Shown in pieces: positions 3,889-25,086 of a stretch of 64,000 nt of DNA (position 1 is the stretch's first letter; the number at the start of each line of letters is the position of its first letter). This stretch comes from an uncultured Clostridia bacterium. Its GTDB lineage: Bacteria; Bacillota; Clostridia; TANB77; CAG-508. The DNA lies in contig OZ006978.1 of assembly GCA_963931155.1 (NCBI GenBank), positions 1,498,289-1,562,288 of the forward strand. Direction: 5' to 3'. Below the pieces are notes generated by a model. The model saw only the letters and a list, made by a program, of their open reading frames with translations. It had not been told where the DNA came from and did no database searches. Both the position numbers and the translations under genes were made by a program.

Positions 3889-3953
3889 AATTTTTGATAA
3901 AAAGAAGAAAGGAAAACAAGAAAAATGAGCAAGCTTGAAAGCCTTGGCGCTGT

Positions 3954-3975
3954 ACACACACACACACACACACAC
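3954..3975. repeat. (AC)11 dinucleotide microsatellite in the 5' leader of paralog B
   Basis: Read directly: gtACACACACACACACACACACACaat. Confidence 0.98.
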
Positions 3976-4095
3976 AATACGTTCTTACCAAAAGGAATGT
4001 TGGAAACAAAGTACGAGAATAGATAGAAGATTCTTCGGAAGAAGAATCCTATTAAACATGCCTCAAAGTTTTAATAGAATAGATAAAGTAACAAC

Positions 4096-4163
4096 AGGGA
4101 TAGACTGTATTACTGTAAATGTTAGTAAAAGGAACATTTATGGTGATATGGCCTATCCTTTTT
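4096..4163 (+). terminator. Candidate leader terminator/attenuator upstream of paralog B
   Basis: Outer stem AGGGATAG (4096-4103) / CTATCCT (4153-4159). Inner hairpin TAAATGTT (4116-4123) / AACATTTA (4133-4140). A T5 run follows at 4159-4163, 65 nt before the GTG start. Confidence 0.35.
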
Positions 4164-4227
4164 GCGTGTGAAAAGTAAGTATTTAAAGAAAAATAAGAAA
4201 TCAAAAGCAGAAAGGAATTGAGGTATA

Positions 4228-7200: not shown

Positions 7201-10200
7201 ATATTAGAAATAAACAATAATGATTTTATAGAAACGAAATATACTGCGTATTATACAATTAATGATTTAAATAATGAATGGCAAGAATATAACTATACAG
7301 TAACATTAAGCAAAACAGGATATATAGGTTTTTATGTTACAGCTAACAATGCAGTTGTTGAAATGCAAGACCTTCAAATAGAACTAGGAAATAAGAAAAC
7401 AGATTACGAAGAATTCAAATATGATTACAATGCAAATATAGCAGTAACAGTAAATGATGAAAGAAACGAAATTGTAACCAATGATTACTATATACGAATT
7501 TACAAAAACAATGAACAAATACAGGAACTACGTTATGAAGAAATAGGAGAAAACAACAAAGTAGAAAATGCACAAAAAACATACAACATAGAACCAGATG
7601 CAAATTATAAAATAGAGCTTTTAGTAAAAATAGGAGAAAGATTTTATGAGCTAGACTCACAAGAATTCTCCACAGAAGGTTCAAGAGAAGTAAAAGGAAT
7701 ATTTAATTTACAAGATTACTTAAAAATACAACCATATGGAGAATATATAGTTTTAGATTACATAGATTTATCAAATGCAAAATATTCATTTGGAGTTGTA
7801 AATGTACTATCTTTTGATGGAACTATAGATTTTAATGGAAACAAATTAATAAATGCTGATTATTTCTCGGATGGCAATAGAGTATTTCAAGAAATGGGAA
7901 GTACAGGAATAATTGAAAATATTGTATTTGAAGTAAAAATAAATGGAAAAACACCAGTAAATGCATTTGGAGGACTAACACAAATAAATTATGGTACAAT
8001 AAGAAATGTACAAATAAATGTGATAGAATCTATAGAAAAAGCAAATTATACAGTTTTTCTAATGGCATATGATAATTATGGTACAATTGAGAATTTTGTA
8101 GTAAATTATCAAGAACCAATCTATGCAGAATATCCTTCTTTAACGTATGTAAACCATGGCATTTTAAGAAATGGATATATGTATGGAAAGAATATACAAG
8201 AAATAAGTCAGACGACTAAATTAACTGGAGCATTTACAAAAAGTAATAATGATAGTGGGATGATAGAAAACATATATACACTAGTAAACATAGATAATGT
8301 GTATAAAACACATCAAACTGCCAATATTGCAGGTAATAATAATAATAATGCAACAGTACAAAATGTATATTCTGTAGGTATAGGAAAAAATGTGACAGAT
8401 TTAACACGTGGACCTACTGTATACTCTAAAAATTCAACAAAAGTATATAATAATTATTATTTTGCAGATGAAATATTTACAAGTGAATTAGAAACAAAAG
8501 GAAATATGTTATCACTTTGGGATTCAACATTTCAAAATCAAATCTTAAATAGCGATGGAGCATTTATAGTAGATGAGCTAGTTAATGAAGGATATTATCC
8601 TCAAATAAAAATGCCAGAATGTATGCCTGCACAAGAATTTATAGAATTACCAGAAGTAAAAGACGCAGACTTACCAGATATATTATCAACTAAAATATTA
8701 GAGCAAGGAACAAATACAGTAAAAGTAGAGTTTAGCGTAAATAACCCAAATGCAGAAACAATAAGCAATATACAAATAGAAAATTTGGAAGTAGAAATAT
8801 TATCTCAAGAGTATAGTAATAAAAAAAGCACAGTAATAGCAGAATTAAAAAATCCATTAATTTGTGTTTCTAGTTATGATGTACTAAGTATAAGTACAAA
8901 AGGAGCATATGGAAGCTCATATACGAGACCATATGAAAAAGGAGAAAGAGTAATAAACGTAGATTTATACAAAGAAATATGGAATATAAATGACTGGAAA
9001 GCAATAAAAGATTCACCAACAGAAAATTATATGTTAATGGCAGATTTAAATTTTGCAAATGAAGGAAATGCGATTTATATAGACAGAGATATCTATGGAA
9101 TATTAAATGGAAACGGACATAGTATATCTAATATATACCTAACTGGAAATACACAGGTAATAAGAGGTGTATATGGAACAATTAAAAATTTAACCATTAA
9201 TAACTTTAATCAAGAAGAGGTAATTACGTTTGGAGGTTTTATAAATTATTTAGGTTCATCTTCTATAGTAGATAATGTTCACATGGTGGATGTTAAAATA
9301 CATAAAAGTGGAGATGGAAGAGCAGGTACTCTTTCTAATGATGCAGGTGCAAGTATGATAAAAAATTCATCAGCCCAAAACATAACAATAATAACAGAAG
9401 GAAATCAGAGTACCTTACATATTGGTGGCTTGATAGGTAGAATAAGTAATACTACAATAGAAAATTGCTATGTAAAAGGACTTAGTGTAAAAGATGAAAA
9501 AGCTATAAACTCAGGTATAGGAGGAATTGTAGGAGTGAGTGCAAATTCCAACAATATAGAAAATTGTTATGTAGAAGGAAAAATAAACTCAGCTAATTTA
9601 AATGTTGGTGGAATTATTGGAAACAGTAGTAATGATAATATAGAAAACTGCTATTCAAAAGTAGATATATCGGCTACAAACAATAACATAGGAGAAATAG
9701 TAGGCTCATATGCAGGAAGTAGTCTAGAGGCAATATCAAACAACTTAAGCATAGGAAATATATATACAAGTTCAGGATTAGATGGGATGAACAGAATATT
9801 AGGAAGTAATGAGGGAACAGAAAGCAACAACTATGCATATGAAAATCAATTATTAAATGGCTATATAAGAGAAGAAGCAAAAGGAGCAACATTGTTAGGA
9901 AAAGAAGAGGTACTAAATTTAAACTTAGGAGAAAGCTATAATTATGATAAAAAAGAAGAAGGTATATTACCAAAGCTATATAACACAGAGGGAACAGAAC
10001 TTTTACCAAACCAAGATGATATATTCTTAGATAATAGCGACACTATAGAAAATGTAGAATTAGAAGTAGAAAGCATTGAAGCTAGCAAGCCAAACACAAC
10101 AGAGGCAGAAGTAACAGTAAAAATAAAAAATCCAAAGGGAGTAGAAATAACAGGACTAGGAATAGAAGATATGGAAGTTACTGCTGTAACAAGAAATGTA

Positions 10201-13200
10201 ACACAAAATGGAATAACAAGTATAACAGTAAGTGCAACTCCAACAAGATACTATGATAGCTATAAATTAACAGGAATAAAATATAAAACAAAAAGTGTAG
10301 AAGAACAAACAAAAGAAATAGAAGTAGAAATACCAGTACAATTCTATAAAGAAATATATACATATGAAGATTGGCAGGGAATAGAAGAAGGAACATATCA
10401 GAATTACAGATTAATGGCAGATATAGATTTTAGTGGAAAATCAAGTATAAAAAATAATATAACAGTAAATAGACTAGAAGCTGAAAATAATTTATATACA
10501 TTAAAAAATATCACATTAGAATTTAATAAAGGAAATACAGGATTAATAAATAATGTAAAAACAAGCATAAAGAATATAGGATTTGAAAATATTACATTAA
10601 CTAATACAGGTTCTGGAAGTTATTTTGGAGTGATATCAAATAGCAATGCAGATATAGAAAACCTAAAATTTACCAATATAACCATAGATAACACAGGAGG
10701 AACTTTTGACGAAGTAGGTGTAATTGGAGGTACTACTTCGGGAAATATTAATAATGTAGAACTTAAAAATATAAATGTAAAAGGAAATACAGATGTAGGA
10801 GGATTTATAGGACAAATTAACATAGGGGTAGAAACAACAATTCAAAATATATCTGGAGATAACATAAATGTAGAAGGTAAAACAAATTATGCAGGAGGAA
10901 TAATAGGAAGACAAACAGGAACAAATATAAAAATAGAAAATATAAAAATAGAAAATTCTAATGTAAAAGGAAATGGTTATACTGGCGGTATTATTGGTGT
11001 AGTATATAATATAAGTTTAAAATATTTAGAAACTAATAACACGGAAATTTCCGGTGGCTCTTATGTAGGCGGTGTAATAGGTTTTTCTAGTATGAGTACT
11101 ATATGGTTCAGCCAAGTTAATTCGTCAAATATAAGTGGAACAGGCAATCTTATAGGCGGTGTGGTTGGACAATGTAGTAGTAGTTCTCCATATTATGTAG
11201 TTGTAAAAAATAGTAAAATTAATGCACTATCAACAAACTCAAAATATATTGGAGGTATTGCAGGAAATAATGCTTGGTGTGGAGTATATTATTATGCAGT
11301 AATTGATACAGAAATAATTAGTAATGGAACAAATGTAGGAGGAGTTACAAATAATTCAGAAGGAGAAAATGACACTAGTTCCGTAGAAGCTAAGTGGGGT
11401 TATGTAAAAAACACAGTTGTTCAAGGAAACTCAAGTGTTGGAGGAATAATTGGATACGGTAGAATGGTTGGAATTCAGGTGGTTTATGTAAATGCCGAGG
11501 TAAAAGCAAATATACATTCAGCAGGAGGACTTGTAGGATATGGAGATAATAAATATATGACAGGAGCAACTAATAGGTTAGTGGCAAATGGTTGTATGGT
11601 TATAGATAGTACTATAACAGCTCCAACAAAAGCAGGAGGATATTTTGGAGATATAGCAAAAGAGCTATATAGAACAGGAAATTATTATACTAATAATTAT
11701 ATTGAAGCAGATGTAATAAGTGAGAATAGTTCTACAGGTTCATTATTAATAGGCGGAAGACCTGATGAAAATGATTATGTACTAGCTACATATATATATA
11801 AGTATAGTACATTAAATGGAGATTATGTATATTCAACAAATGACAATATAGACAATAAACAATATTTAGTAAGAACAGATTTAGAGCAACAAAACACATA
11901 TTTAAGTAAAATAGGAATTGGAATAACATATTGGAATTATGCAAGTTTAACAGAAGGAAAATATCCTAAAATATTAGATTCATACCTATACAAACCAGAA
12001 TTACAAGAAGGAGTGGATTTACCAGTTGATCCAGAAATTTCCTCACTAAATATATTAAATGAGGAAAATGAGGACAATTTAAATTCAAATAATCAAAACA
12101 ACTTGACGGAGCAAAACGGTATAACAAGTGATAACGAAAAAGTAACAGAAGATGCAGGAGCATTACCAAGCTATACAGTATATCCTGTTTCTGTAAATGA
12201 AATAAATGTAGACTTTAGTGAAGTAGTAAATAATTATAAAGTAGAAGGAAATAATGAGCAACAAGGAGAACAAACAAGTAGTGCAGATACAAGAACATAC
12301 TTCACATACTACGTAAACGGAGAAGAAAAAGAAACGGTAGAATTAAGCAATAGCACAAAACAAACATATACATTTAAATATAATTTTAGAGATACATTAG
12401 AAATAAAGCTTACAAGAGAAGATAATGTAGATTTAAATAATGTGGTGGAAAATACTCAAACAAATTTAACATCAGACGAAAGTGCAAGTACAAAAATTAA
12501 TATGGAAACAAACGCAGAAATAGGCACAAAAACAAACATACACACAGAAATAATAATAATCAAACCAGAAGATGTAAGAAGTGAAGCAAGTTTAGTTGGT
12601 AGTATCAATGCATATTTATTAGGCACGAACTTATACATAAATGGAGAATTACAACAAGGAGAATATGTAAATGTATATGAAGGATTAGCTCTAAAAAGTG
12701 ATGGTACAGTAATAAATATAGCAACAAATGAAAATGTAGAACAAAATGTGGAAACAGTATTAGAAGAAAATGCGAAACCTTTAGAAACGCACAACTACAA
12801 GGACTACAGAATAAACACATATGGAACTTACAGCACAGTAAATGGAAATATAAAACTTCAAATATACAATGTAAGAAGCGGTAAGTTATCAGCTTTATCA
12901 AACACTATGGATATAAAAATAGGAAATAACATAACAGACAACTACAACGACAAAGAATATCAAACAATATTAGCAACAGAAGGAAACTTAGTGGACTTAA
13001 AAGAAATGCTAAAATATCCAGAGAATTTCCTAACAAGAAATATAAAACAAATAGCACAAAATACAGATGAAGAAAAAACAGAAATGATAGTATTATACAA
13101 TACTGGAAAAGTAATAGTATTTAACTATGTAACAGGAGAAGTAATTTATGAAAACAACGAAAAAGCAGATTCGGGATTAGTAGATTACTTAGAAGGAAGT

Positions 13201-13740
13201 ATTTCTAACATATGGAATGATTATGAAGAAAAACAGCAAGAATATGCAAAAAGTAAAGAGTTAGAACAAAAGCTTGCAAAATTACCAATAGAAGAAGCGT
13301 TAAAGGAAAATATAGATAATAGCACCGATAATACAAATGGTGTAAGCAAAAATCAAAATAAGCTAGAAGAAAACAATAATACTTCCAACAAAGATGTAGC
13401 GCATGGAACAACAAATGAAAACGATGATAGAAACTCAGGCAATAATTCAAATACAAGCACAGACAACAGTTACGTTTCAGTTTACAATGCGGAAACAAAA
13501 GAATATGAGGTATACAGCGAAAACGAAATACTAAACGAAAGTGGAGAAACACCAGTATCAGAAACAGAAAAGATAAAACAAAACGGATTAGAAGGAATAT
13601 ATGGATATAATGCAAAAGAAGAAACAAAGCCACAAACAAATGGAGCAATAATAGTAATAGCAACAATAGTTGTAGCAGTAATTGCGTTGGTTATTTTAAG
13701 AAAAATTGTTGTAAAAAATAATACAAAAAAGAAAAAATAA
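4228..13740 (+). CDS. Giant (3170 aa) cell-surface protein, paralog B: Ig/Fn3-like repeats, CBM-like jelly roll, three GLUG-like beta-helix modules, sorting signal
   Basis: GTG start 7 nt after GAGG. Basic N-terminus followed by a TM helix (LPTFILIGLILMIIIIAIIYYVF). Repeated beta-sandwich signatures (SSEYEIRGIFYY, NTKYRIDVITT, NEEYRIIVYA). Three copies of the ...DW..I......NY.LM.D(L/I).F... module, each followed by many GG[IL][IV]G repeats. C-terminus is KPQTN-G, then a hydrophobic helix, then KNNTKKKK. Confidence 0.9.
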   Translation: MRKDRINKTQVNNKKIRKEKRGLNNKGKRVNVKNLPTFILIGLILMIIIIAIIYYVFLRYAPEQIITYSGYAIEGQALAENLKNSDISNVKPYLDLVEVQENDLLYKRLNSYYVGEDDKKEIDINYPIYINEGNALLNIGKNTKLITVNYEEVAGYPEFMMTDGVMYNGADLTRADGNKYIFLKSEDEIYTNVGAIKITTATNTYNIKEFSNIYFTENSITYYEMEEDSNVQNWYMKYKRIDDIDNNSKIEVKGETISYKTFLERLGLIDSEENVNNTDKEKTTNEISENTVEKPEQVNEESSANENNNITTEATTDSKEENKEPEWQEGMWEKPEVSCTDFEGEVYTIRTNLSVRDRAGVITRGITFEIYLDGRLNRRVQVAQAGTLEITNLRPSSEYEIRGIFYYNDENGIEQEEEFYTGKVSTKSIDTLGTLDFSFQNGEIYSNKIEIIHLKLNNNIDEEVVRGISRLQVEIGDVAYRLTNAQIDELKAGKEITYQTSENLTSNSKIKYEITAFDRFGNELKEKNNEGETITSKQMPTASIRPTKQDVTEIEIEVVLNNKDNVKLENYRYEITNPSGDIVKQGILGTGNSNGSNNGQVGEDGSLIAGGNINDGHKETLKFNDLDPNGYYQIVIYGDYDLEDGTGIKENAELGRGSFVTRPIASLGYMQVKIDDKEITQNSMDLGISIDENQTDARLLAILDKVEVVIYDEGKNTDNDGQQGQEEQSKETEVQRITFMQEQVQQIKTSEEVELSIEQLNSNTKYRIDVITTVRQGTVEEVVEDKQNIEQLITLKMPAEVQIKNQFVIGTMIDLDMRIEDIDSSVLTNKVRIEVRDKDNKLIDLSEMSTNAEYERKVYEDLTPNEEYRIIVYAPQYNIGSTDKTYKADYILKEIKIVTETGISGRLDLIGLEKTPTGKNLIDVSSKVNWFERCFNISNKYGLSYNEENKILKLGGSMWTNNINYYDLSKYLGQQVTISFKAREQNNTNLDILEINNNDFIETKYTAYYTINDLNNEWQEYNYTVTLSKTGYIGFYVTANNAVVEMQDLQIELGNKKTDYEEFKYDYNANIAVTVNDERNEIVTNDYYIRIYKNNEQIQELRYEEIGENNKVENAQKTYNIEPDANYKIELLVKIGERFYELDSQEFSTEGSREVKGIFNLQDYLKIQPYGEYIVLDYIDLSNAKYSFGVVNVLSFDGTIDFNGNKLINADYFSDGNRVFQEMGSTGIIENIVFEVKINGKTPVNAFGGLTQINYGTIRNVQINVIESIEKANYTVFLMAYDNYGTIENFVVNYQEPIYAEYPSLTYVNHGILRNGYMYGKNIQEISQTTKLTGAFTKSNNDSGMIENIYTLVNIDNVYKTHQTANIAGNNNNNATVQNVYSVGIGKNVTDLTRGPTVYSKNSTKVYNNYYFADEIFTSELETKGNMLSLWDSTFQNQILNSDGAFIVDELVNEGYYPQIKMPECMPAQEFIELPEVKDADLPDILSTKILEQGTNTVKVEFSVNNPNAETISNIQIENLEVEILSQEYSNKKSTVIAELKNPLICVSSYDVLSISTKGAYGSSYTRPYEKGERVINVDLYKEIWNINDWKAIKDSPTENYMLMADLNFANEGNAIYIDRDIYGILNGNGHSISNIYLTGNTQVIRGVYGTIKNLTINNFNQEEVITFGGFINYLGSSSIVDNVHMVDVKIHKSGDGRAGTLSNDAGASMIKNSSAQNITIITEGNQSTLHIGGLIGRISNTTIENCYVKGLSVKDEKAINSGIGGIVGVSANSNNIENCYVEGKINSANLNVGGIIGNSSNDNIENCYSKVDISATNNNIGEIVGSYAGSSLEAISNNLSIGNIYTSSGLDGMNRILGSNEGTESNNYAYENQLLNGYIREEAKGATLLGKEEVLNLNLGESYNYDKKEEGILPKLYNTEGTELLPNQDDIFLDNSDTIENVELEVESIEASKPNTTEAEVTVKIKNPKGVEITGLGIEDMEVTAVTRNVTQNGITSITVSATPTRYYDSYKLTGIKYKTKSVEEQTKEIEVEIPVQFYKEIYTYEDWQGIEEGTYQNYRLMADIDFSGKSSIKNNITVNRLEAENNLYTLKNITLEFNKGNTGLINNVKTSIKNIGFENITLTNTGSGSYFGVISNSNADIENLKFTNITIDNTGGTFDEVGVIGGTTSGNINNVELKNINVKGNTDVGGFIGQINIGVETTIQNISGDNINVEGKTNYAGGIIGRQTGTNIKIENIKIENSNVKGNGYTGGIIGVVYNISLKYLETNNTEISGGSYVGGVIGFSSMSTIWFSQVNSSNISGTGNLIGGVVGQCSSSSPYYVVVKNSKINALSTNSKYIGGIAGNNAWCGVYYYAVIDTEIISNGTNVGGVTNNSEGENDTSSVEAKWGYVKNTVVQGNSSVGGIIGYGRMVGIQVVYVNAEVKANIHSAGGLVGYGDNKYMTGATNRLVANGCMVIDSTITAPTKAGGYFGDIAKELYRTGNYYTNNYIEADVISENSSTGSLLIGGRPDENDYVLATYIYKYSTLNGDYVYSTNDNIDNKQYLVRTDLEQQNTYLSKIGIGITYWNYASLTEGKYPKILDSYLYKPELQEGVDLPVDPEISSLNILNEENEDNLNSNNQNNLTEQNGITSDNEKVTEDAGALPSYTVYPVSVNEINVDFSEVVNNYKVEGNNEQQGEQTSSADTRTYFTYYVNGEEKETVELSNSTKQTYTFKYNFRDTLEIKLTREDNVDLNNVVENTQTNLTSDESASTKINMETNAEIGTKTNIHTEIIIIKPEDVRSEASLVGSINAYLLGTNLYINGELQQGEYVNVYEGLALKSDGTVINIATNENVEQNVETVLEENAKPLETHNYKDYRINTYGTYSTVNGNIKLQIYNVRSGKLSALSNTMDIKIGNNITDNYNDKEYQTILATEGNLVDLKEMLKYPENFLTRNIKQIAQNTDEEKTEMIVLYNTGKVIVFNYVTGEVIYENNEKADSGLVDYLEGSISNIWNDYEEKQQEYAKSKELEQKLAKLPIEEALKENIDNSTDNTNGVSKNQNKLEENNNTSNKDVAHGTTNENDDRNSGNNSNTSTDNSYVSVYNAETKEYEVYSENEILNESGETPVSETEKIKQNGLEGIYGYNAKEETKPQTNGAIIVIATIVVAVIALVILRKIVVKNNTKKKK

Positions 13741-13961: not shown

Positions 13962-14029
13962 AAACTAATACTGAAGTATAAAAATATTCCCAAACGTAAT
14001 GATTTATGAAAGAAGGGAGAAAAACGAAG

Positions 14030-15364
14030 ATGGAAAGATTAAAAAGGAAAATTGATAATTATCTTATTGAGTGGAAAAAGAACAATGATAGCTTGCCATT
14101 AATTATAAAAGGAGCAAGACAAATAGGAAAAACCAATGCAATAAGAAACTTTGGGCAAAATAATTATCAAACTTTTGTTGAAATAAATTTTGCTTTACAA
14201 CCACAATTTAAAACAATTTTTGAAGAAGGATTTGAAGTCGACAATATAATAAAAAATATAACTCTAAAAATGCCTGAAATAGAAATAAACGAGCATGATA
14301 CATTAATCTTTTTTGATGAAATGCAAGAATGTGTAAGTATCGCAACTTCACTAAAAGCATTTAATGAAGATGGAAGATATGATGTTATTTGCTCAGGTTC
14401 TTTAATGGGAATTAACTACAAAGAAATTGAATCAAATAGTGTTGGAAACAAAGAAGATTACATTATGAAATCATTAGATTTTGAGGAATTTTTATGGGCT
14501 AAAGGATATTCAGATGAGCAAATAGAAGATTTGTATCAACATATGAAAAAACTAAAACCGCTAAGCAATATGCAGTATGATGTGATGATGGCTAATTTTA
14601 AAGAATATATGATAGTAGGAGGTATGCCTGCTATAGTAAGCAGATTTGTGGAGAACAGAAACTTTAGTGGAATTTTAAAAATGCAACAGCAAATTTTATT
14701 GGATTATGAAGAAGATATAACTAAGTATGCTGGAGGATTAGACAAAACTAAGATACTGAACTGTTATAGAAAAATACCAGTCTTTTTAGGAAATGAAAAT
14801 AAAAAATTTCAAATATCAAAAATTGCTGATGGTGCAAGAAATAGAGAATATGTAGGTGTTGTTGAATGGCTAGAAAATGCCGGAATTGTAAATATCTCAT
14901 ACGCTATGGAACAAGCTAGCCTTCCACTAAAAGGAAATTATAATCCGGATAATTATAGATTATATTTTGCAGATACTGGATTGTTAATTGGTTCACTAGA
15001 TGAAGAAGTTCAAGAAGATTTAAGAAATAACGAAAATATGAATACTTACAAAGGAGCATTATATGAAAATATTGTAAGTGATATGTTAGTGAAAGAAGGC
15101 TATAGCTTATATTTTTACAAAGATGATAGTAAAAAAATCGAAATGGACTTTATGGTAAGAGATAAAAATTCATTAATTCCAATCGAAGTTAAAGCAAATG
15201 ATAATGCAACAATTTCACTTAATAATTTAATAAACAATAATTTATATAAAGATATTAAATATGGTATAAAGTTTTGCAACAAAAATATAGGATTTAATGG
15301 AAAGTTTTACACATTTCCGTATTTCTTAACATTTTTATTAAAAAGATTTTTAAAGGAAAAATAA
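14030..15364 (+). CDS. AAA-family ATPase (AAA_14 N-terminal domain plus DUF4143-type C-terminus)
   Basis: Walker A is GARQIGKT; Walker B-like is LIFFDEMQ. The overall length and layout match DUF4143 ATPases. ATG 14030 has the RBS AAGGGAG 10 nt upstream; the tracked start at 14006 has none. Confidence 0.75.
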   Translation: MERLKRKIDNYLIEWKKNNDSLPLIIKGARQIGKTNAIRNFGQNNYQTFVEINFALQPQFKTIFEEGFEVDNIIKNITLKMPEIEINEHDTLIFFDEMQECVSIATSLKAFNEDGRYDVICSGSLMGINYKEIESNSVGNKEDYIMKSLDFEEFLWAKGYSDEQIEDLYQHMKKLKPLSNMQYDVMMANFKEYMIVGGMPAIVSRFVENRNFSGILKMQQQILLDYEEDITKYAGGLDKTKILNCYRKIPVFLGNENKKFQISKIADGARNREYVGVVEWLENAGIVNISYAMEQASLPLKGNYNPDNYRLYFADTGLLIGSLDEEVQEDLRNNENMNTYKGALYENIVSDMLVKEGYSLYFYKDDSKKIEMDFMVRDKNSLIPIEVKANDNATISLNNLINNNLYKDIKYGIKFCNKNIGFNGKFYTFPYFLTFLLKRFLKEK

Positions 15365-15420
15365 TTTTGTGATGAGAAATTAAAAAAAATACAAAATAGT
15401 ATTCAAAATTAAAATAGTTA

Positions 15421-15429
15421 TGATATAAT
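15421..15429 (+). promoter_or_regulatory. Extended -10 promoter (TGaTATAAT) of giant paralog C
   Basis: TGATATAAT with TTCAAA 16 nt upstream. Homologous to the promoter at 3880. Confidence 0.6.
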
Positions 15430-15441: not shown

Positions 15442-15470
15442 GTGCCACCCGGGACAGACCACATTGGCAC
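15442..15470. repeat. REP-like hairpin, copy 1 (GTGCCA-cccgggacagaccacat-TGGCAC)
   Basis: 6-bp stem. The loop motif GGGACAGACC is shared with copies at 29106, 31479 and 32910. Confidence 0.7.
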
Positions 15471-15529
15471 AGCAAACAAGAGAAAAGGAGACTAGAAAAT
15501 ATGAGAAAAGCTAAAAACCGCATGGCTCT

Positions 15530-15545
15530 AGAGAGAGAGAGAGAG
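15530..15545. repeat. (AG)8 dinucleotide tract inside the 5' coding region of paralog C
   Basis: Read directly: ctAGAGAGAGAGAGAGAGcta. It separates ATG 15501 (frame 0) from the body of the ORF (frame 2). Confidence 0.98.
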
Positions 15546-15595
15546 CTACACTATTAAATAACCTACCAGTATTTATACTAGTAGGAATAGTTGTA

Positions 15596-18500
15596 ATGCT
15601 AATAATACTAGTAGTAATATATTATATATTTTTAAGATATTCACCAGAACAAATAATAACATATAGTGGATATGCAATAGAAGGAAAAGAGATGGTGGAG
15701 AACTTAAAGAGTAGTGATAAGTCCAAGTTAGCACCATACTTGGGCTTAATTGCTGTGCAAGAGAATGATTTGATATATAAAAAATTAAATTCATATTACA
15801 TAGGAGAAGATGATAAAAAAGAGATAGATATAAATTATCCAATATACATAAATGAAGGAAATGCCTTACTTAATTTAGGAGAGAACACAAAACTAATAAC
15901 AGTAAATTATGAAGAAGTAGAAGGATATCCAGACTTCATGATGGCAGATGGAGTAATGTATAATGGAGTTGACATAACAAGAGCAGATGAAAACAAGTAT
16001 CTGTTCCTAAAAAGTGAAGATGAAATATACACAAATGTAGAACCAATAACCATAACAACAGCAAATGGAGAGTATACAATAAAAGAGTTTAGTAACATAT
16101 ATTTTGCAGAAGACCATATAGCATATTATGAAATGGAAGGTATGCAAGGAAAAAACGAGCGAAATGAAAATAATGAAAAAAATAACGGTACAGAAGATAG
16201 AACAAATAGTGAAGTAAATAATAATGCAGAAAGTAAACAAAAAGAAAATCAAGGGAATAATAAGAACGATAATTTAAAAGACAGCTATTTACAATACAAA
16301 GAAATAAAGCCAATAGACCCAGATTCAAAGACAAAGATAAATGGAGAAACAATAACATATAAAACATTGTTGGAGAGATTAGACATTTTACAAACAGAAG
16401 ATAACAACGCAAACAATAACAACGAAGAAAATGCAACAAACGAAACAAAAGAAGATGATGTAAAAAATACGACAAACGAAGAGAATACAACCACAGGAGA
16501 AACAACAGAGCAAAACAATAATATAAGCAATAATCAAAATACAACAAATACGGAAAATAACAATAGCAACAAGGATGAAGACGAATGGCAGGAAGGAATG
16601 TGGGAAAAACCAGAAGTAAGCTGTACAGATTTTGAAAGCGATGTGTATACAATAAGCACAAATCTATCAGTAAGAGATAGAGCAAATGTCATTTCAAGAG
16701 GAATTACATTTGAACTATACTTAGATGGAAGATTAAATAGAAGAGTATTTGCAACAAAAGTAGGAAAAGTAGAGATATCAAACTTACAACCAAGTTCAGA
16801 ATATGAGATAAAAGGAATATTCTACTATACAGATGAAAACGGAGTAGAACAACAAGAAGAATTTTACAATGGAAAAGTAACAACAGAATCAATAGACACA
16901 TTAGGAACAATAGATTTTAGTTTTCAAAATGGAGAAATATATTCAAATAAAATAGAATTAAAGAACTTAAAAATAAACAACAATATAGACGAAGAAGTAA
17001 TAAAAGGAATATCAAGGTTGCAAATAGAGATAGGAGATATAGCATATAGATTAAGCAATAACCAAGTAAATGATATAAAAGCAGGAAAAGAAATAACATA
17101 CCAAACAAGTGAAAGTCTAACATCAAATAGTAAAATAAAATACAAAATCACAGCATTTGATAGATTTGGAAATGAGCTAAAAGAGAAGAACAATGAAGGA
17201 GAGACAATAACATCAAAACAAATGCCAACAGCAAGTATAAGACCAACAAAACAAGATGTAACAGAAATAGAGATAGAAGTAGTACTAAATAATAAAGATA
17301 ATGTAAAACTAGAAAACTATAGATATGAAATAACAAACCCAAGTGGAGATATAGTAAAGAGTGGAGCATTAGGCAAAAACGATAATGGCACAGATGGTGG
17401 AAACTCCAATGAAGGGGAAAACATAAATGACGGACACAAAGAAACATTAAAATTCAACGACCTAGACCCAAATGGATATTATCAAATAGTAATCTATGGA
17501 GACTACGACTTAGAAGATGGAACAGGAATAAAAGAAAATGCAGAACTAGGAAGAGGAAGTTTTGTAACAAGACCACTAGCATCATTAGGATATATGCAAG
17601 TAAAAATAGATGATAAAGAAATAACACAAAATAGTATGAATCTTGGAATAAGCATAGATGAAAACCAAACAGATGCAAGACTTTTAGCAATACTAGATAA
17701 GGTAGAAGTAGTAATATATGATGAAGGTAAAAATTTAGATAACGGTGGGCAACAAGGAGAAGAAGAACAAAGTAAAGAAACCGAAGTACAATGCCACACC
17801 TTCACACAAGAACAAGTTTCACAACTAAAAACATCAGAAGAGGTAGAGTTAGATTTACAACAACTAAACTCAAACACAAAATACAGAATAGATGTAATAA
17901 CAACAGTAAGACAAGGAACGGTAGAAGAAGTAGTAGAAGACAAGCAAAACATAGAACAATTAATAACACTAAAAATGCCAGCAGAAGTACAAATAAAGAA
18001 CCAATTTGTAATAGGTACAATGATAGACCTGGATATGAGAATAGAAGATATAGATAATGCAGTATTAACAAACAAAGTAAGAATAGAAGTAAGAGATAAA
18101 GACAATAAATTAATAGACCTAAGTGAAATGCAAACAAATGCAGAATATGAAAGAAAAACATATGAAGACCTAACACCAAACGAAGAATATAGAATAATAG
18201 TATATGCACCACAATACAACATAGGAAGTACAGATGAAACATACGAAGCAGATTACATCTTAAAAGAAATAAAAATAGTAACAGAAACAGGAATAAGTGG
18301 AAGATTAGACTTAATAGGACTAGAAAAAACACCAACAGGAAAGAACCTAATAGATGTAAGCTCAAAAGTAAATTGGTATGAAAAGTGTTTTAATACAAAT
18401 AATAAATATGGTTTAATCTATAATGCAGAAACAAAAATAGTTACATTAGGTGGAACTACATGGCCGAATCATTTAACTTATTATGATTTAAGCAAATACT

Positions 18501-21500
18501 TAGGACAAGAAGTAACAATAAGTTTTAAAGCAAAATCTGAAAATGGAAAAATTTTAAATATAATAGAAAAAAAGAATGATGATTTTAATAACACAGATTT
18601 AACAACATATTATTGGATAAAGGACTTAAATAAAGAATGGCAAGAATATAGTTATACAACTATACTCAAAACAACAGGATATATTGGATTTTATGTAGAT
18701 GCTAATACATTAGTAGAAATACAAGACTTACAAATAGAACTAAGCGATAAAAAAACAGACTATGAAGAATTCAAGTATGACTACAATGCAATTGTAGCAG
18801 TAACGTTAAATGATGAAAGAGATGAAATAGCAACAAATGATTATTATATACGAATATACAAGAACGACGAACAAATTCAAGAAATAAGATATGAAGAAAT
18901 AGGAGAAGACAACAAAGTAGAAAATGCAGAAAAAACATACAACATAGAACCAAATGCAAATTATAAAATAGAGCTTTTAGTAAAAATTGGAGAACGATTC
19001 TATGAGTTAGATTCACAAGAGTTTTCAACAGAAGGTTCAAGCGAATTGAAAGGAATTCAGAACAAAAATGATTTCTTAAAAATACAACCATATGGACAAT
19101 ATATTGTATTAGACAACATAGATTTAACAAATAATAGTGGTATTATGTATCGATTTGGAAATACTAATTTAGAATTTGAGGGAAAGATAGATTTCAATGG
19201 AAAGACTCTATTTAAAGACTGGAGTGGGGACAATACTGTACCAGTTATTTATCAACTTGGAGATAATGGAACATTGGAAAATGCAGTACTTGATGTAAAA
19301 ATGAATAATAAAAATTCTTCCGCTTTTGCTACTACATCTGGATTAGTTAGTAGAAATTATGGAAATATACGAAACATGCAAATTAATTTAACAGAATCAA
19401 ATTATAATTCAAATAATGATGCGTGGATTTTTAGTTATGAAAACCATGGAATAATAGAAAACTTTGTAGTAAATTTTCAAGTGCCATTTTATTTATCCGG
19501 TCTTGGGGGGATTTTCGGTTATCAAAATTATGGTATAATAAAAAATGGATATATTTATGGCGAAAATATACAAAACATAAATAATACTAATTCTCCTTCA
19601 AAGGCAGCGGAAATTGTTGCTAACAATGCGGGAAATGGAGAAATAGAAAATATTTATACATTAATAAGCATAGATAACGTATATGAAAAATCAGGGTATG
19701 CGAAAAATATCGTATACAGCAATGTTAATAATGCAACAGTACATAATGTGTATTCCGTAAAAATAGGAAAGAATACTAGTTTGACAAACGGACCCAATAT
19801 TTATAATGGTTCTAAAAAAGTTTATAATAGTTACTATTTTACAGATGAGACTTTTACAAATTCTTCTGAAACAAAAGGTAATAAATTATCATTATGGGAT
19901 GCAGAATTCCAAAATCAACTAATAAATAGTGATAAAGTGTTTGTAGTAGATGAACTAGTAAATGAAGGATATTATCCTCAAATAAAAATGCCGGATTGTA
20001 TGCCAGTACAAGAATATATAGAATTGCCAGAAGTGGCTGATAGCGACCTTCCAGATATATTATCAACAAAGGTACTAGAACAAGGAACAAATACAGTAAA
20101 AGTAGAATTTAGTGTGAACAACCCATCAGCAGAAACAATAGATAATATACAAATAGAAAATATAAATGTAGATATTCTTTCACAAGAATATAGTAATGGA
20201 AAAAGTACAGTAATAGCAGAATTAAATAATCCTACTATTTGTGTATCAAGTTATGATGTATTAAGTATAAGTACAAAAGGTGCATTTGGAAGCTCATATA
20301 CAAGACCATATGAAAAAGGAGAAAGAGTAATAAATGTAGATTTATATAAAGAGGTATGGAATATAAATGACTGGAAAAGTATAAACGATTCTCCAACTGA
20401 AAACTATATGCTTATGGAAGACTTAGACTTTGTAAATGAAGGGAACACTATAAGACTAGAAGCTGTACATGGTATAATAAATGGCAATGACCATACAATA
20501 TCGAATATAACATTGAAGGATATATCACTTATATTAAATTGTTATGGAACATTAGAAAATTTATATATTTATAATTTCAAACAAGAGACATTATCAAGTA
20601 GAGGACTTATTACATATGCGAACCCTAATGCACTAATAGATAATGTTCATGTTACAAATAGTTCAATAATTGTAACAGGTTCTGGACGATTTGGAGGATT
20701 AATAAGTAGTACATCAGGCTGTATTATAAAAAATAGTTCTATTACAGATTTGAATATAAATGTAACTGCAGAACAAGATGAAATGTATATTGGAGGACTT
20801 GTTGGCTATATTTATACCACAAGCATAGAAAATTGCTATGTTCAAGGGCTAAACATAAAAGACTTAAAAGGAGTAAATGCAGGAATTGGAGGGCTTGTTG
20901 GAACGGGAACTGATGCAAATAGTATAATAAATTGTTATGCAGAAGGAAAAATAGATTCGAATAATTTAAATGTAGGAGGATTAATAGGTTCTACTACTAG
21001 TATTAATATTGAAAACTGTTACTCTAAAGTAAATATATCAACTACAAATAGTAATATAGGAGGTATAATAGGAAGTTACTCACTAACTGATTTAAGAACT
21101 ATTACAAACAATATAAGCATAGGAAACATATATACTACATCAGGATTGGATGCTTTGAATAGAATTGTTGGAAATAATGGAGAATTAACAACTAACAATT
21201 ATGCATACGAAAAACAATTATTAAATGGGTATGTAAGAGCGGATGAAAAAGGTGCTACCTTATTAAATAAAGAAGAAATATTAAACTTAAACTTAGGAAC
21301 AAAATATAATTATGAAGGAAAAACAGAAGGAATATTGCCTAAATTATATAACACAGAAGGTACTAAAATATTACCTAATCAAAAAGATATACTAATAGAA
21401 GATAATTCTTTATCAGGTGCAACGGGCTTGGAGATAGAAAGCATAGAAGCTACAAAGCCAAACACAACTGAAGCAGAAATATCAATTAGAATAAAAAATC

Positions 21501-22375
21501 CAGATGGAATAGATATTACAGGATTAGAAATAGAAGATATGGAAGTCACAGAAATAACAAGAAATGTAACACAAAAAGGGATGACAAATATTACAGTAAG
21601 CGCAGTTCCAACAAGATATTATGATACATATAAGCTTATTGGAATTAAATATAAAACTGGGGGTATACAAGAAGAACAAACAAAAGATGTAGAGGCAGAA
21701 GTAAAAGTGCAATTCTATAAGGAAATATATACATATGAAGATTGGCAGTCGATAGAAGACGGAACTTATCAAAATTACAGATTAATGGCAGACATAGATT
21801 TTAATGGCAGAACTAATATAAAGAATAATATAACAGTTAATAGATTAGAAGCTGAAAATAATATTTATACATTAAAAAATATTAACATATCATTTAATAA
21901 AGCTAATACGGGTTTAATAAACAATGTAAAAACAAGTATTAAAAATATAGGATTTGAAAATATTACATTAACAAACACAACGGGTACAGGAAATTATTTT
22001 GGAGTGATAGCAAGTAATAATGGAGAAGTAGAAAGTTTAAAGTTTACCAATATAACAATAAATGCATCTGGTATAAATTATTTAGGTGCTATAGGAGTAA
22101 TGAATTCCGGAAATATTGATAATATAGAAATTAACCATATGACCATAAATGGAAAAGGACAAATAGGAGGACTTTTGGGAAATATTGTTGTATCCGGTGA
22201 TGAACATATAAAAAATGTACAAGGAAATAACATAAATATAACAGGTACAGATATTTATATAGGTGGAATAATTGGTAAACAGACCAGCACCAGACTTGTA
22301 ATAGAAAATATACGGAATAAAAGATTCAAATATAACTGGAAAATCAGATTATGTAGGTGGAATTATAGGAAGTAA
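15596..22375 (+). CDS. Giant surface protein paralog C, N-terminal 2259-aa segment. The tracked ATG lies inside the signal-anchor helix and the 3' end is truncated by a frameshift.
   Basis: Collinear with paralog B residues ~46-2290. The homologous MRK start codon is at 15501 in another frame. The reading frame is lost near 22310. Confidence 0.8.
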   Translation: MLIILVVIYYIFLRYSPEQIITYSGYAIEGKEMVENLKSSDKSKLAPYLGLIAVQENDLIYKKLNSYYIGEDDKKEIDINYPIYINEGNALLNLGENTKLITVNYEEVEGYPDFMMADGVMYNGVDITRADENKYLFLKSEDEIYTNVEPITITTANGEYTIKEFSNIYFAEDHIAYYEMEGMQGKNERNENNEKNNGTEDRTNSEVNNNAESKQKENQGNNKNDNLKDSYLQYKEIKPIDPDSKTKINGETITYKTLLERLDILQTEDNNANNNNEENATNETKEDDVKNTTNEENTTTGETTEQNNNISNNQNTTNTENNNSNKDEDEWQEGMWEKPEVSCTDFESDVYTISTNLSVRDRANVISRGITFELYLDGRLNRRVFATKVGKVEISNLQPSSEYEIKGIFYYTDENGVEQQEEFYNGKVTTESIDTLGTIDFSFQNGEIYSNKIELKNLKINNNIDEEVIKGISRLQIEIGDIAYRLSNNQVNDIKAGKEITYQTSESLTSNSKIKYKITAFDRFGNELKEKNNEGETITSKQMPTASIRPTKQDVTEIEIEVVLNNKDNVKLENYRYEITNPSGDIVKSGALGKNDNGTDGGNSNEGENINDGHKETLKFNDLDPNGYYQIVIYGDYDLEDGTGIKENAELGRGSFVTRPLASLGYMQVKIDDKEITQNSMNLGISIDENQTDARLLAILDKVEVVIYDEGKNLDNGGQQGEEEQSKETEVQCHTFTQEQVSQLKTSEEVELDLQQLNSNTKYRIDVITTVRQGTVEEVVEDKQNIEQLITLKMPAEVQIKNQFVIGTMIDLDMRIEDIDNAVLTNKVRIEVRDKDNKLIDLSEMQTNAEYERKTYEDLTPNEEYRIIVYAPQYNIGSTDETYEADYILKEIKIVTETGISGRLDLIGLEKTPTGKNLIDVSSKVNWYEKCFNTNNKYGLIYNAETKIVTLGGTTWPNHLTYYDLSKYLGQEVTISFKAKSENGKILNIIEKKNDDFNNTDLTTYYWIKDLNKEWQEYSYTTILKTTGYIGFYVDANTLVEIQDLQIELSDKKTDYEEFKYDYNAIVAVTLNDERDEIATNDYYIRIYKNDEQIQEIRYEEIGEDNKVENAEKTYNIEPNANYKIELLVKIGERFYELDSQEFSTEGSSELKGIQNKNDFLKIQPYGQYIVLDNIDLTNNSGIMYRFGNTNLEFEGKIDFNGKTLFKDWSGDNTVPVIYQLGDNGTLENAVLDVKMNNKNSSAFATTSGLVSRNYGNIRNMQINLTESNYNSNNDAWIFSYENHGIIENFVVNFQVPFYLSGLGGIFGYQNYGIIKNGYIYGENIQNINNTNSPSKAAEIVANNAGNGEIENIYTLISIDNVYEKSGYAKNIVYSNVNNATVHNVYSVKIGKNTSLTNGPNIYNGSKKVYNSYYFTDETFTNSSETKGNKLSLWDAEFQNQLINSDKVFVVDELVNEGYYPQIKMPDCMPVQEYIELPEVADSDLPDILSTKVLEQGTNTVKVEFSVNNPSAETIDNIQIENINVDILSQEYSNGKSTVIAELNNPTICVSSYDVLSISTKGAFGSSYTRPYEKGERVINVDLYKEVWNINDWKSINDSPTENYMLMEDLDFVNEGNTIRLEAVHGIINGNDHTISNITLKDISLILNCYGTLENLYIYNFKQETLSSRGLITYANPNALIDNVHVTNSSIIVTGSGRFGGLISSTSGCIIKNSSITDLNINVTAEQDEMYIGGLVGYIYTTSIENCYVQGLNIKDLKGVNAGIGGLVGTGTDANSIINCYAEGKIDSNNLNVGGLIGSTTSINIENCYSKVNISTTNSNIGGIIGSYSLTDLRTITNNISIGNIYTTSGLDALNRIVGNNGELTTNNYAYEKQLLNGYVRADEKGATLLNKEEILNLNLGTKYNYEGKTEGILPKLYNTEGTKILPNQKDILIEDNSLSGATGLEIESIEATKPNTTEAEISIRIKNPDGIDITGLEIEDMEVTEITRNVTQKGMTNITVSAVPTRYYDTYKLIGIKYKTGGIQEEQTKDVEAEVKVQFYKEIYTYEDWQSIEDGTYQNYRLMADIDFNGRTNIKNNITVNRLEAENNIYTLKNINISFNKANTGLINNVKTSIKNIGFENITLTNTTGTGNYFGVIASNNGEVESLKFTNITINASGINYLGAIGVMNSGNIDNIEINHMTINGKGQIGGLLGNIVVSGDEHIKNVQGNNINITGTDIYIGGIIGKQTSTRLVIENIRNKRFKYNWKIRLCRWNYRK

Positions 22376-22380
22376 TTCAT

Positions 22381-25086
22381 ATGGTATTTTACGGATCTTT
22401 TAATTCTGAAAACACTAATGTAACAGGAGTTGCAAATGTAGGAGCAATTTTTGGAGCATGTTATGGTAATGAAAATGCATATATTAGGCATCAGATGCAA
22501 GTTGATTCTTGTACTGTTATAGGAACAGGAAATTATTTAGGCGGAATCTCTGGGTATCATCATGGTGGAAATAATTTAGGATGGAAAGTAATAGATACAA
22601 CAATTAGTGCAAATAATACATCATCTAAAAATGTTGGTGGCCTAGTAGGGTACTTAGGACAAACACCTATTGATCGTATACAAATAGATGGAATTACAAT
22701 AAAAGGAAATGCAACCAATGTGGGCGGAGCTGTAGGGACAAATGATTCTAGAACATGGATTACACTTGGGTATATTACGAATGCTATAATAGAAGGAAAT
22801 TCTAATGTGGGCGGAGTGTATGGTTATTCATCAGCCTCATATATTCATGATTTGTATATTGATGCGGAAATAAAAGCACATAGCAGTAGTGCTGGTGGAG
22901 TAATAGGGTATATGGATAATACCTATATGGAAGAATCAAGAAACATTATACAAATATATAGAGTTGCAGTAGTTAATAGCAATATAGTTGCTGAGTCAAA
23001 AGCTGGTGGTTTAATTGGAGACATTGCTACTAATATATTTAGAAACAAATCATTCTATTATGACAATTATGTTGAAACAAATGTAACAAGTACAAATTCG
23101 TCAACAGGTTCGCTAATAATTGGTGGTAGACCAGATGAAAACGATTACATTGATAATACGTATGTGTATAAATACAGCAAATTAAATAGCAATTACGTTT
23201 ATGCAACAAATGACAATATAAATAATAATCAATACTTAGTAAGAACCGACTTAGACAATCAAAGTACCTATTCAAACAAAATAAATTTAGGAACAACATT
23301 TTGGAGTTATACAAGTTTATCAGAAGGAAAATATCCAAAGATAAATGATGACTATGTATACCATCCAGAATTACAAACAGGAGTAAATTTACCAGTTGAC
23401 CCAGAAATTGCTGATATAAGCTTATTAAGTGAAGGTAATGAGAGTGATACCACAAGTCAAAATGAAGAAACTGATATAAAAATACAAAACAGTACTGTAA
23501 TAGACGCATTACCAAGTTATAAAGTATATCCAATTTCAGTAAATGAAATAAATATAGACTTTAGTGAAGTAATGAATAATTATAAAGTAGAAGAAAATAA
23601 TGGGCAACAAGGAGAACAATTAAGAAGTGCAGATACAAAAACATACTTCACATACTACGTAAACGGAGAGGAAAAAGAAACTATAGAATTAAGTAATACC
23701 ACAAAACAAACATATACGTTCAAATATAATTTTAAAGACACATTAGAAATAAAACTTACAAGAGAAGATAATGTAGATTTAAATAATGTGATGGAAAATA
23801 CTCAAACAAATTTAACCTCAGACGAAAGTGCAAGTACAAAAACTAATATGGAAACAAACGCAGAAACAGGCACAAAAACAAACATATACACAGAAACAAT
23901 AGTAATCAAACCAGAAGATGTAAGAAGTGAAGCAAGTTTAGTTGGAAGAAACAATGCATATATATTAGGCACAAACATATATGTTAATGGAGAATTGCAA
24001 CAAGGAGAATATGTAAATGTATATGAAGGATTAGCTCTAAAAAGTGATGGTACAGTAATAAATATAGCAACAAATGAAATTGTAGAACAAAATGTGGAAA
24101 CAGTATTAGAAGAAAATACAAAACCTTTAGAAACATACAACTACAAAGACTACAGAATAAACACATATGGAACTTACAGCACAGTAAATGGAAATATAAA
24201 ACTTCAAATATACAATGTAAGAAGCGGTAAGTTTTCAGTTTTGTCAAATGGTTTAGATATAAAAATTGGAAATAGCATAATAGATAATTACAATAATAAA
24301 GAATACCAAACAATCCTGTCAACAGAAGGAAATTTAGTGGACTTAAAAGAAATGCTAAAATATCCAGAGAATTTCTTAACAAGGAATATAAAACAAATAG
24401 CACAAAATACAGATGAAGAAAAAACAGAAATGATAGTATTATACAATACTGGAAAAGTAATAGTATTTAACTATGTAACAGGAGAAGTAATTTATGAAAA
24501 CAACGAAAAAGCAGACTCAGGATTAGTAGATTACTTAGAAGGAAGTATTTCTAACATATGGAATAATTATGAAGAAAAACAGCAAGAATATGCAAAGAGT
24601 AAAGAGTTAGAACAAAAGCTTGCAAAATTACCAATAGAAGAAGCGTTAAAGGAAATTATGGATAGTAGCACCGATGATACAAATGGTGTAAGCAGAAATC
24701 CAAATAAGCTAGAAGAAAACAATAATACTGCCAACAAAGATATAGCGCAAGGAACAACAAGTGGAAACGAAGATAGAAACTCAGGCAATAATTCAAATAC
24801 AAGCACAGACAACAGTTACGTTTCAGTTTACAATGCAGAAACAAAAGAATATGAGGTATACAGCGAAAACGAAATACTAAACGAAAGTGGAGAAACACCA
24901 GTATCAGAAACAGAAAAGATAAAACAAAACGGATTAGAAGGAATATATGGATATAATGCAAAAGAAGAAACAAAGCCACAAACAAATGGAGCAATAATAG
25001 TAATAGCAACAATAGTTATAGCAGTAATTGCGTTGGTTATTTTAAGAAAAATTGTTGTAAAAAATAATACAAAAAAGAAAAAATAA
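22381..25086 (+). CDS. Giant surface protein paralog C, C-terminal 901-aa segment
   Basis: Continues the alignment to paralog B (GLUG-like repeats ... STGSLIIGGRPDEN ... KPQTNGAIIVIATIVIAVIALVILRKIVVKNNTKKKK). The last ~520 aa are nearly identical to B. Confidence 0.8.
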   Translation: MVFYGSFNSENTNVTGVANVGAIFGACYGNENAYIRHQMQVDSCTVIGTGNYLGGISGYHHGGNNLGWKVIDTTISANNTSSKNVGGLVGYLGQTPIDRIQIDGITIKGNATNVGGAVGTNDSRTWITLGYITNAIIEGNSNVGGVYGYSSASYIHDLYIDAEIKAHSSSAGGVIGYMDNTYMEESRNIIQIYRVAVVNSNIVAESKAGGLIGDIATNIFRNKSFYYDNYVETNVTSTNSSTGSLIIGGRPDENDYIDNTYVYKYSKLNSNYVYATNDNINNNQYLVRTDLDNQSTYSNKINLGTTFWSYTSLSEGKYPKINDDYVYHPELQTGVNLPVDPEIADISLLSEGNESDTTSQNEETDIKIQNSTVIDALPSYKVYPISVNEINIDFSEVMNNYKVEENNGQQGEQLRSADTKTYFTYYVNGEEKETIELSNTTKQTYTFKYNFKDTLEIKLTREDNVDLNNVMENTQTNLTSDESASTKTNMETNAETGTKTNIYTETIVIKPEDVRSEASLVGRNNAYILGTNIYVNGELQQGEYVNVYEGLALKSDGTVINIATNEIVEQNVETVLEENTKPLETYNYKDYRINTYGTYSTVNGNIKLQIYNVRSGKFSVLSNGLDIKIGNSIIDNYNNKEYQTILSTEGNLVDLKEMLKYPENFLTRNIKQIAQNTDEEKTEMIVLYNTGKVIVFNYVTGEVIYENNEKADSGLVDYLEGSISNIWNNYEEKQQEYAKSKELEQKLAKLPIEEALKEIMDSSTDDTNGVSRNPNKLEENNNTANKDIAQGTTSGNEDRNSGNNSNTSTDNSYVSVYNAETKEYEVYSENEILNESGETPVSETEKIKQNGLEGIYGYNAKEETKPQTNGAIIVIATIVIAVIALVILRKIVVKNNTKKKK

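Follow-up and report, generated by a model that had tools for sequence, protein, structure and literature searches.

A 64,000-nucleotide (nt) stretch of DNA from an uncultured Clostridia bacterium (contig OZ006978.1, positions 1,498,289 to 1,562,288; hereafter, the window) contains paralogous genes for giant, membrane-anchored surface proteins. In one of these genes, paralog C, a tract of eight AG dinucleotides, (AG)8, lies between a start codon preceded by a Shine-Dalgarno (SD) sequence and the codons for the membrane anchor, and the start codon and the anchor codons are in different reading frames. Does this tract switch paralog C ON and OFF, and how did it come to lie where it does? A preliminary description, made from the sequence alone, proposed a slipped-strand switch, currently in the OFF phase. 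We conclude, with a probability of roughly 65%, that the tract is a repeat made hypermutable by slipped-strand mispairing, that it determines the frame linking the SD sequence and ATG 15501 on one side to the anchor of the giant surface protein on the other, and that it is derived by deletion from a leader/terminator switch of the gene family.

The AG tract and the reading frame of paralog C

The tract, the SD sequence GGAG, ATG 15501, TAA 15555, and the body frame are all located where the preliminary description had placed them (Table 1). Paralog C has a usable start (the SD sequence and ATG 15501), followed by the tract and then by anchor codons from 15563, which places the tract within the reading frame. 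The body frame, two bases ahead of the ATG 15501 frame, is open from 15515 to a stop codon at 22373–22375; its translation contains ...RERERATLLNNLPVFILVGIVVMLIIL... and ...RERERATLLNNLPVFILVGIVVMLIILVVIYYIFLRY.... Changing the unit number in silico yields open reading frames (ORFs) of 2,290 amino acids (aa) with 7 AG and 2,292 aa with 10 AG, and of 18 aa with 8 AG and 20 aa with 9 AG. As had been proposed, one unit fewer or two units more fuses the frames: 7, 10, and 13 units are ON, and 8, 9, 11, and 12 units are OFF. With 8 units, ribosomes initiating at ATG 15501, the probable start codon, would stop at TAA 15555, and the protein would not be made; with 7, 10, or 13 units, ATG 15501 would be fused to the anchor, and the protein would be made. 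Of 300 first-order Markov simulations of the window, which is AT-rich (~28% guanine plus cytosine, GC), only 3 produced a dinucleotide tract, of whichever type, that reached 8 units, and the sole other long dinucleotide tract within the window is the (AC)11 tract 5′ of paralog B.

To compare tract lengths across isolates, as the preliminary description had suggested, C-lineage alleles were collected by a protein search with the fused N-terminus, together with the contigs behind the matches (numbered L; proteins, P). Eight AG units are present in the window and in a public ENA contig that is 100% identical to it over 20,630 nt (L040; ena:ERZ21549425:s371.ctg000486l), 10 units in L001 (Illumina, SPAdes), 11 units in L002, L028, and L029 (Canu contigs), and 13 units in L050 (Illumina, SPAdes). 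The 8- and 11-unit alleles are out of frame (OFF). The 10-unit allele is ON, reading MKGKSKKMKKRKNRIALERERERATLLNNLPVF... in frame (P0001), and the 13-unit allele is ON, reading MRKAKNRMALERERERERATLLNNLPVF... (P0029) from the same ATG as the window; the latter allele differs from the window by 4 mismatches in the 300 nt 3′ of the tract and is open across all 393 codons up to the contig end. C orthologues with conserved flanks thus have four distinct tract lengths, two of them in frame, and none of the orthologues compared has an uninterrupted, non-repetitive sequence at the tract position. The C tract is hypermutable, its length differing between strains, and this variation is consistent with frequent slippage within a population. 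Both ON alleles encode MRKAKNRMAL(ER)nATLLNNLPVF..., that is, the basic N-terminus followed by a membrane anchor that had been predicted for the fused form. A further orthologous contig, L039, yields no unit count, a 534-nt run of N covering the tract, and scans of JGI metagenomes for the C junction and for a general AG leader gave no matches.

Upstream of the SD sequence, the promoter-like site of C is homologous by sequence comparison to GTTATGGTATAAT, located 5′ of the paralog B leader. Between this site and the SD sequence, the 5′ untranslated part of C contains a short hairpin, GTGCCA...TGGCAC (window positions 15442–15470), which is kept, with substitutions, in L050.

Origin of the tract in a leader/terminator element

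The tract is not special to C, a point on which the preliminary description needs correction: (AG)n or (AC)n is also present in 23 other paralog leaders. The giant-gene family is greatly expanded in uncultured Clostridia genomes assembled from metagenomes, with at least 13 copies in BRZ_MF bin81, some in arrays ~11 kb apart, and at least 7 copies in BRZ_FH bin30. In 21 copies, in two leaders of contig L030, and in paralog B of the window, (AG)9–17 or (AC)8–15 is located 200–310 nt 5′ of the giant-gene start, inside a short ORF with its own SD sequence and ATG. Every leader has a small hairpin, P1, 3′ of the repeat and just past the early stop codons, and a 28–30-bp hairpin of −28 to −38 kcal/mol, directly followed by a run of 5–7 T residues. 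The terminator hairpin and T-run are present for paralog B and 22 other leaders, and the distance from the T-run to the giant-gene start is ~40–150 nt. When both terminator types were aligned together in MAFFT, the inner stem came out misaligned and RNAalifold kept the outer 12 pairs only, so pairs were counted in 16 similar leaders; standard pairs occupy 95.8% of hairpin pair cells in these sequences, versus 43–57% in slid controls. In bin30-type leaders, the inner-stem sequence differs and the same hairpin forms.

The three frames of the leader ORF differ in length in a consistent manner. In the set of 23 leaders (21 leaders plus the two in L030), two frames stop 9–51 nt after the repeat, at or before P1, and the third frame is open for 137–256 nt after the repeat. 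The stop codon of the long frame lies at −10, +10, or +34 to +70 nt relative to the start of the T-run in 23 of 23 leaders, the position at −10 nt being inside the 3′ arm of the terminator hairpin, and it never lies upstream of the terminator. One fully open frame over that distance occurs in 0.2–3% of dinucleotide shuffles per leader. The frame that passes through the hairpin 3′ arm varies between leader types; its openness is kept. We considered and rejected the possibility that the long frame encodes a conserved small protein: its ratio of nonsynonymous to synonymous polymorphism (pN/pS) is 0.64, versus 0.87 and 0.47 in the other two frames, its variable sites are distributed 15/19/19 over the codon positions, and it has no synonymous excess, third-position bias, or family matches. 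Since the long frame is open without protein-level constraint, the conserved property is that one phase would bring ribosomes to the terminator.

Leader repeats vary in length in a single genomic context. Specifically, one paralog has 11, 12, and 13 AG units in three assemblies (L003, L032, and L033, respectively) in which its flanks are identical (0 mismatches over 800 nt upstream and 1,200 nt downstream), and its 13-unit form has a 71-aa leader ORF that was picked up by a gene caller. In the window, the leader of paralog B has a folding z-score of −6.6 and a terminator-like attenuator 65 nt 5′ of the GTG start codon; with (AC)12, the leader ORF would extend to 82 aa, through the terminator, and end at TGA 4169–4171, just past the T-run. 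Judging from its frames, the B leader is presumably OFF at present, one unit short of the long phase.

The usual order in this family, 5′ of the giant gene, is promoter, leader ORF with (AG)n or (AC)n, small hairpin, and strong intrinsic terminator. In only one of the three leader frames would ribosomes that have passed the repeat enter or cross the terminator, and their transit would presumably block formation of the hairpin, such that transcription continues into the giant gene. By analogy with pil1 of Streptococcus gallolyticus, we infer that translating ribosomes disable the terminator of the unfused leaders; more speculatively, P1 might be a pause site that couples ribosome and polymerase.

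Paralog C departs from this order. The preliminary description took ATG 15501 as homologous to the GTG-MRK start of paralog B, a correspondence that does not hold: in the alignment, what matches ATG 15501 in other paralogs is the ATG of the leader ORF. In particular, the SD sequence, ATG 15501, the pre-tract codons, the tract, and the next 17 nt of C are colinear with the leader ORFs of other paralogs (with 16 of the 17 nt of CTACACTATTAAATAAC identical in the L003 leader), and from 15563 the sequence changes to anchor codons that align with NLPTFILIG of B, which places the junction between 15562 and 15563. Because the start region of C aligns colinearly with leader ORFs and then switches to the anchor, ATG 15501 is, by alignment, the predicted start of a leader ORF and not the counterpart of the GTG start of B. 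On the same comparison, a deletion in the C lineage appears to have taken the rest of the leader, the terminator, the original start, and the N-terminus, joining the leader at 17 nt past the repeat to the anchor codons. The residues ATLLNN of the C ON protein derive from the long frame of the leader (GTLLNN...). No hairpin with a T-run was found 3′ of the C tract; the terminator is absent because that segment was deleted, and the repeat would therefore act in the classical manner, setting the start codon in or out of frame. Paralog C is a derivative of the leader/terminator family, not a working member of it, and would now be a translational switch; the deletion would have converted a transcriptional attenuation switch into a direct translational one. 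The anchor-coding segment directly 3′ of the deletion junction contains a 10-bp palindromic hairpin, CCTACCAGTATTTATACTAGTAGG (window positions 15562–15585).

A scan of the whole window against Rfam at gathering thresholds gave no matches, and the leader is thus not a described riboswitch or RNA family. In L030, two leaders stand in tandem 5′ of one giant gene (positions 880–1501), with (AG)9 at 922–939 and (AG)12 at 1221–1244, each with a hairpin and T-run. More distant relatives of the giant gene (51–65% identity; L017, L023, L024, L026, and L027) have no repeat leader, the gene directly following an upstream ORF, and the leader switch therefore looks, from this distribution, like an innovation of one clade.

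Table 1. Features of paralogs B and C and of their 5′ regions, in window coordinates
Feature	Position	Strand	Basis
C promoter-like site, TTCAAA, 16 nt, TATAAT, with TG 5′ of the −10 element, GTTATGATATAAT	15402–15429	+	10 of 12 matches
C SD sequence GGAG, 10 nt 5′ of ATG 15501	15487–15490	+	sequence read
C short ORF in present OFF phase, MRKAKNRMALERERELHY, 18 codons, stop codon TAA 15555–15557	15501–15557	+	translation
C hypermutable (AG)8 tract, AGAGAGAGAGAGAGAG	15530–15545	+	sequence read, allele series
C leader sequence 3′ of the repeat, 17 nt, CTACACTATTAAATAAC	15546–15562	+	alignment with other paralogs
C membrane-anchor codons, LPVFILVGIVVMLIILVVIYYIFL, homologous to LPTFILIGLILMIIIIAIIYYVFL of B	15563–15634	+	sequence comparison
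C body ORF as called, 2,259 aa, GLUG motif	15596–22375	+	68% identity to B residues 10–2240
C further frame breaks, frame 2 to 3 near 22312 and frame 3 to 1 near 22395	22305–22400	+	frame comparison with B
C tail ORF, 901 aa, homologous to B residues 2258–3162	22381–25086	+	tblastn
B leader extended −10 element, TGGTATAAT	3880–3888	+	sequence read
B leader ORF in present OFF phase, MSKLESLGAVHTHTHTHNTFLPKGMLETKYENR, stop codon TAG at base of P1	3925–4026	+	translation
(AC)11 tract inside B leader ORF	3954–3975	+	sequence read
B leader hairpin P1, AGAAGATTCTTCGGAAGAAGAATCCT	4025–4050	+	folding
B long hairpin (4097–4158), ~27 bp, ~−31 kcal/mol, followed by TTTTT (4159–4163)	4097–4163	+	folding
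Paralog B, intact 3,170-aa membrane-anchored giant protein	4228–13740	+	uninterrupted ORF, GTG start

Operating switch or decaying gene

Comparison by tblastn indicates that C is homologous to B along its whole length and is broken three times, the first break being the AG tract. At the 3′ boundary of the body ORF, the stop codon TAA 22373–22375 is followed, 5 nt later, by the tail ORF, which is opened by AGGA and ATG 22381. At both internal breaks, a 41x Illumina contig assembled independently from another sample (L039; 99.3% identity over 4.8 kb) has exactly the window sequence, and the breaks are for this reason real; L002 is too diverged or mosaic to be usable for comparison at these positions. 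It follows from the two breaks that the ON phase in the window genome would give a protein of ~2,290 aa, without the last ~900 residues, and not the 3,170-aa form. The proposal of an ON/OFF switch of C is accordingly upheld as regards the gating of the frame and the variable tract, and is qualified by the two further breaks, which shorten the ON product. The split gene may constitute two expressed cistrons or may be dead. The sequence TACGGA, present at both internal breaks, was considered as a special signal and rejected; it encodes the residues YG within a motif that recurs.

In the giant proteins, a basic N-terminal stretch accompanies a single hydrophobic anchor, and searches of Pfam, NCBIfam, and PDB sequences with the giant protein returned only the GLUG motif and a marginal match to a putative IgA1 protease. 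Many family members end after 300–350 codons through frameshifts or a nonsense codon (P0003, P0006, and P0008; L001 positions 1846–1850). One of these, P0003 (L003, L032, and L033), ends at 353 aa identically on 7 contigs from several samples, and its truncation is therefore not an assembly error. The truncation points may be further switch sites or may reflect widespread pseudogenes.

The most serious alternative is that C is a decaying pseudogene, with the fusion deletion, the internal breaks, and the out-of-frame tract all being lesions, and with the differences in tract length reflecting neutral slippage without a regulatory role. Several observations weigh against an operating switch and toward this alternative. 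Neither of the breaks near 22312 and 22395 coincides with a long repeat, and both, as noted, are the same in the assembly of a 99.3%-identical strain; the 10-unit ON allele of L001 has an in-frame TAA at codon 318; truncations are common among family members in public assemblies; and the 2,259-aa OFF product is the only recorded form of this version of the gene, present on 9 contigs including one of 1.75 Mb (contigs counted by their identical product). Given the fixed breaks and the TAA of L001, the C locus may be decaying, and a relic tract would show the same length variation. The evidence on length consists of consensus assemblies of different strains. Finally, 3 of the 21 family leaders are in the long, presumed ON, phase in consensus assemblies, a proportion that fits a mostly-OFF family but also fits neutral drift.

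On the other side, the ratio of nonsynonymous to synonymous substitution rates (dN/dS) between the C genes of the window and L001, both of which carry the fusion, is 0.22, which indicates purifying selection after the fusion and selective maintenance of the fused form during most of its existence. Of the four distinct tract lengths, two are in frame, the 13-unit allele being open over all available codons. The body (2,259 aa) and the tail (901 aa) are still long ORFs, and public data contain four sequence variants of the tail at its full 901 aa, a fifth member of the cluster having 442 aa. The promoter and SD sequence of C are intact. Weighing both sides, we regard decay as unlikely, though a real contender, and put at about two-thirds the chance that C is still an operating switch, yielding a C-terminally shortened protein in this strain.

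A second alternative is that ATG 15596 is the true start; the tract would then belong to an untranslated or leader region and have no influence on whether the protein is made. Gene callers chose this start in the window lineage, P0002, and P0030. ATG 15596 falls within the hydrophobic anchor segment, as the preliminary description had recognized, and has no SD sequence, being preceded by GGAATAGTTGTA; its product would start partway through that segment, without the basic N-terminus found 5′ of NLP.FIL in 25 of 25 paralogs, and the in-frame alleles reach exactly to the ATG that is preceded by an SD sequence. Together, these points make a start at 15596 highly improbable. The last alternative, that the count of 8 units is an assembly or sequencing error and that C is really in frame, draws on the error-prone nature of repeat tracts in some long-read data and on the origin of the 11-unit alleles in Canu contigs with many broken genes, and we give it almost no credence in view of the public contig that matches the window without a difference over 20,630 nt, (AG)8 included, the same 2,259-aa call on 9 contigs, the clean 10- and 13-unit alleles from Illumina assemblies, and the uninterrupted 3,170-aa neighboring gene B in the same window.

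The surroundings of the paralogs provide further context. The window is chromosomal, as indicated by the presence of SpoIVA, GlmU, IleS, QueA, Tgt, and SecD downstream. Paralogs A and B are separated by an AbiEi/AbiEii toxin-antitoxin pair (window positions 2436–3850), and B and C by a gene for a DUF4143 AAA ATPase (14006–15364). The order from the ATPase to C is kept in L028, L029, and L040; the exact 452-aa ATPase product adjoining C is not on record. Long ORFs occupy both strands of a GC-richer patch (38%) at 30534–31415; that on the + strand (30576–31409) corresponds to a radical SAM gene in related contigs, and the one on the − strand is therefore probably spurious.

Significance and comparison with known systems

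If the leaders operate as proposed, a single genome would have 13 or more giant surface-protein genes, each switched independently by a leader dinucleotide repeat and terminator, with C as a deletion-made conversion to a translational switch that keeps the repeat, the promoter, and the start codon; we consider the chances of this broader picture to be even. Independent switching of at least 13 giant genes would, if true, generate combinatorial variation of the cell surface. The same logic across a family of ~3,000-aa membrane-anchored proteins of uncultured animal-gut Clostridia suggests that the mechanism is more general, and it suggests stochastic surface variation by these bacteria, which bears on host colonization and immune evasion. 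A natural experiment is offered by the C locus, in that one repeat has two different read-outs. In practical terms, gene callers mis-start or split these genes, and tract length is worth recording in genome comparisons.

Repeat-driven phase variation is textbook knowledge in Neisseria, Haemophilus, Helicobacter, Campylobacter, and mycoplasmas. To our knowledge, it has hardly been described in Clostridia, where invertible DNA switches dominate. In Clostridioides difficile, the large surface-protein gene cwpV is switched by terminator formation in its 5′ leader; the switch is a DNA segment inverted by a recombinase, not a repeat tract, and is not coupled to translation. The giant-gene family resembles cwpV in comprising large surface-protein genes of Clostridia that are presumably controlled by a terminator in the 5′ leader and differs from it in using a repeat rather than an inversion.

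As a translational switch, paralog C has close counterparts. The Helicobacter pylori genes sabA and hopZ have dinucleotide repeats in the 5′ coding region. In H. pylori oipA, an outer-membrane protein gene, CT repeats are located in the 5′ coding region (PMC10564699). In both oipA and C, a CT or AG tract that separates the start codon from the export signal or mature part sets the ON or OFF phase, and strains differ in unit number. Unlike the H. pylori genes, C belongs to a Gram-positive-type spore-former and encodes a giant signal-anchored protein, and its tract came from a leader ORF through a deletion instead of residing in the signal-peptide region. The M.MmyCI methyltransferase gene of Mycoplasma mycoides has 12 AG repeats (PMC3498834); it shares with C an AG tract in the coding region, a low-GC host, and an OFF phase that ends early at TAA. 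M.MmyCI encodes a cytoplasmic methyltransferase, whereas C encodes a surface protein, and M.MmyCI has no leader/terminator ancestry.

The unfused leaders have a different counterpart. In S. gallolyticus pil1 and pil3, the frame of a leader-peptide gene depends on its GCAGA repeats (Danne et al. 2014, PMC3894217): a leader stop codon within or after a stem-loop terminator allows ribosomes to prevent hairpin formation, and the pilus operon is ON, whereas a stop codon upstream of the terminator leaves it OFF. The pil3 terminator stem-loop is −28.2 kcal/mol (PMC3894217). The unfused leaders, including that of B (3925–4171), share the order of parts with pil1 and pil3: promoter, repeat-containing leader ORF, terminator, and surface gene. 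They differ in having a dinucleotide, (AG)n or (AC)n, rather than a pentanucleotide repeat; in having one long frame of three, whereas in pil1 out-of-frame changes give a longer peptide; in having as target a single gene for a ~3,000-aa membrane-anchored protein rather than a pilus operon; in occurring at 13 or more paralogs of a single genome, in a host of the class Clostridia; and in having the additional hairpin P1 after the early stop codons. Paralog C itself, unlike pil1 and pil3, has no terminator. Literature searches for a leader-peptide-repeat attenuator turned up one system only, in one streptococcus, and did not turn up conversion of an attenuation switch into a translational switch by a single deletion. 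The translational switch of C is thus of an ordinary kind in an unusual host, and the dinucleotide leader attenuator of the family is a variant of a mechanism that these searches otherwise found in one streptococcus only.

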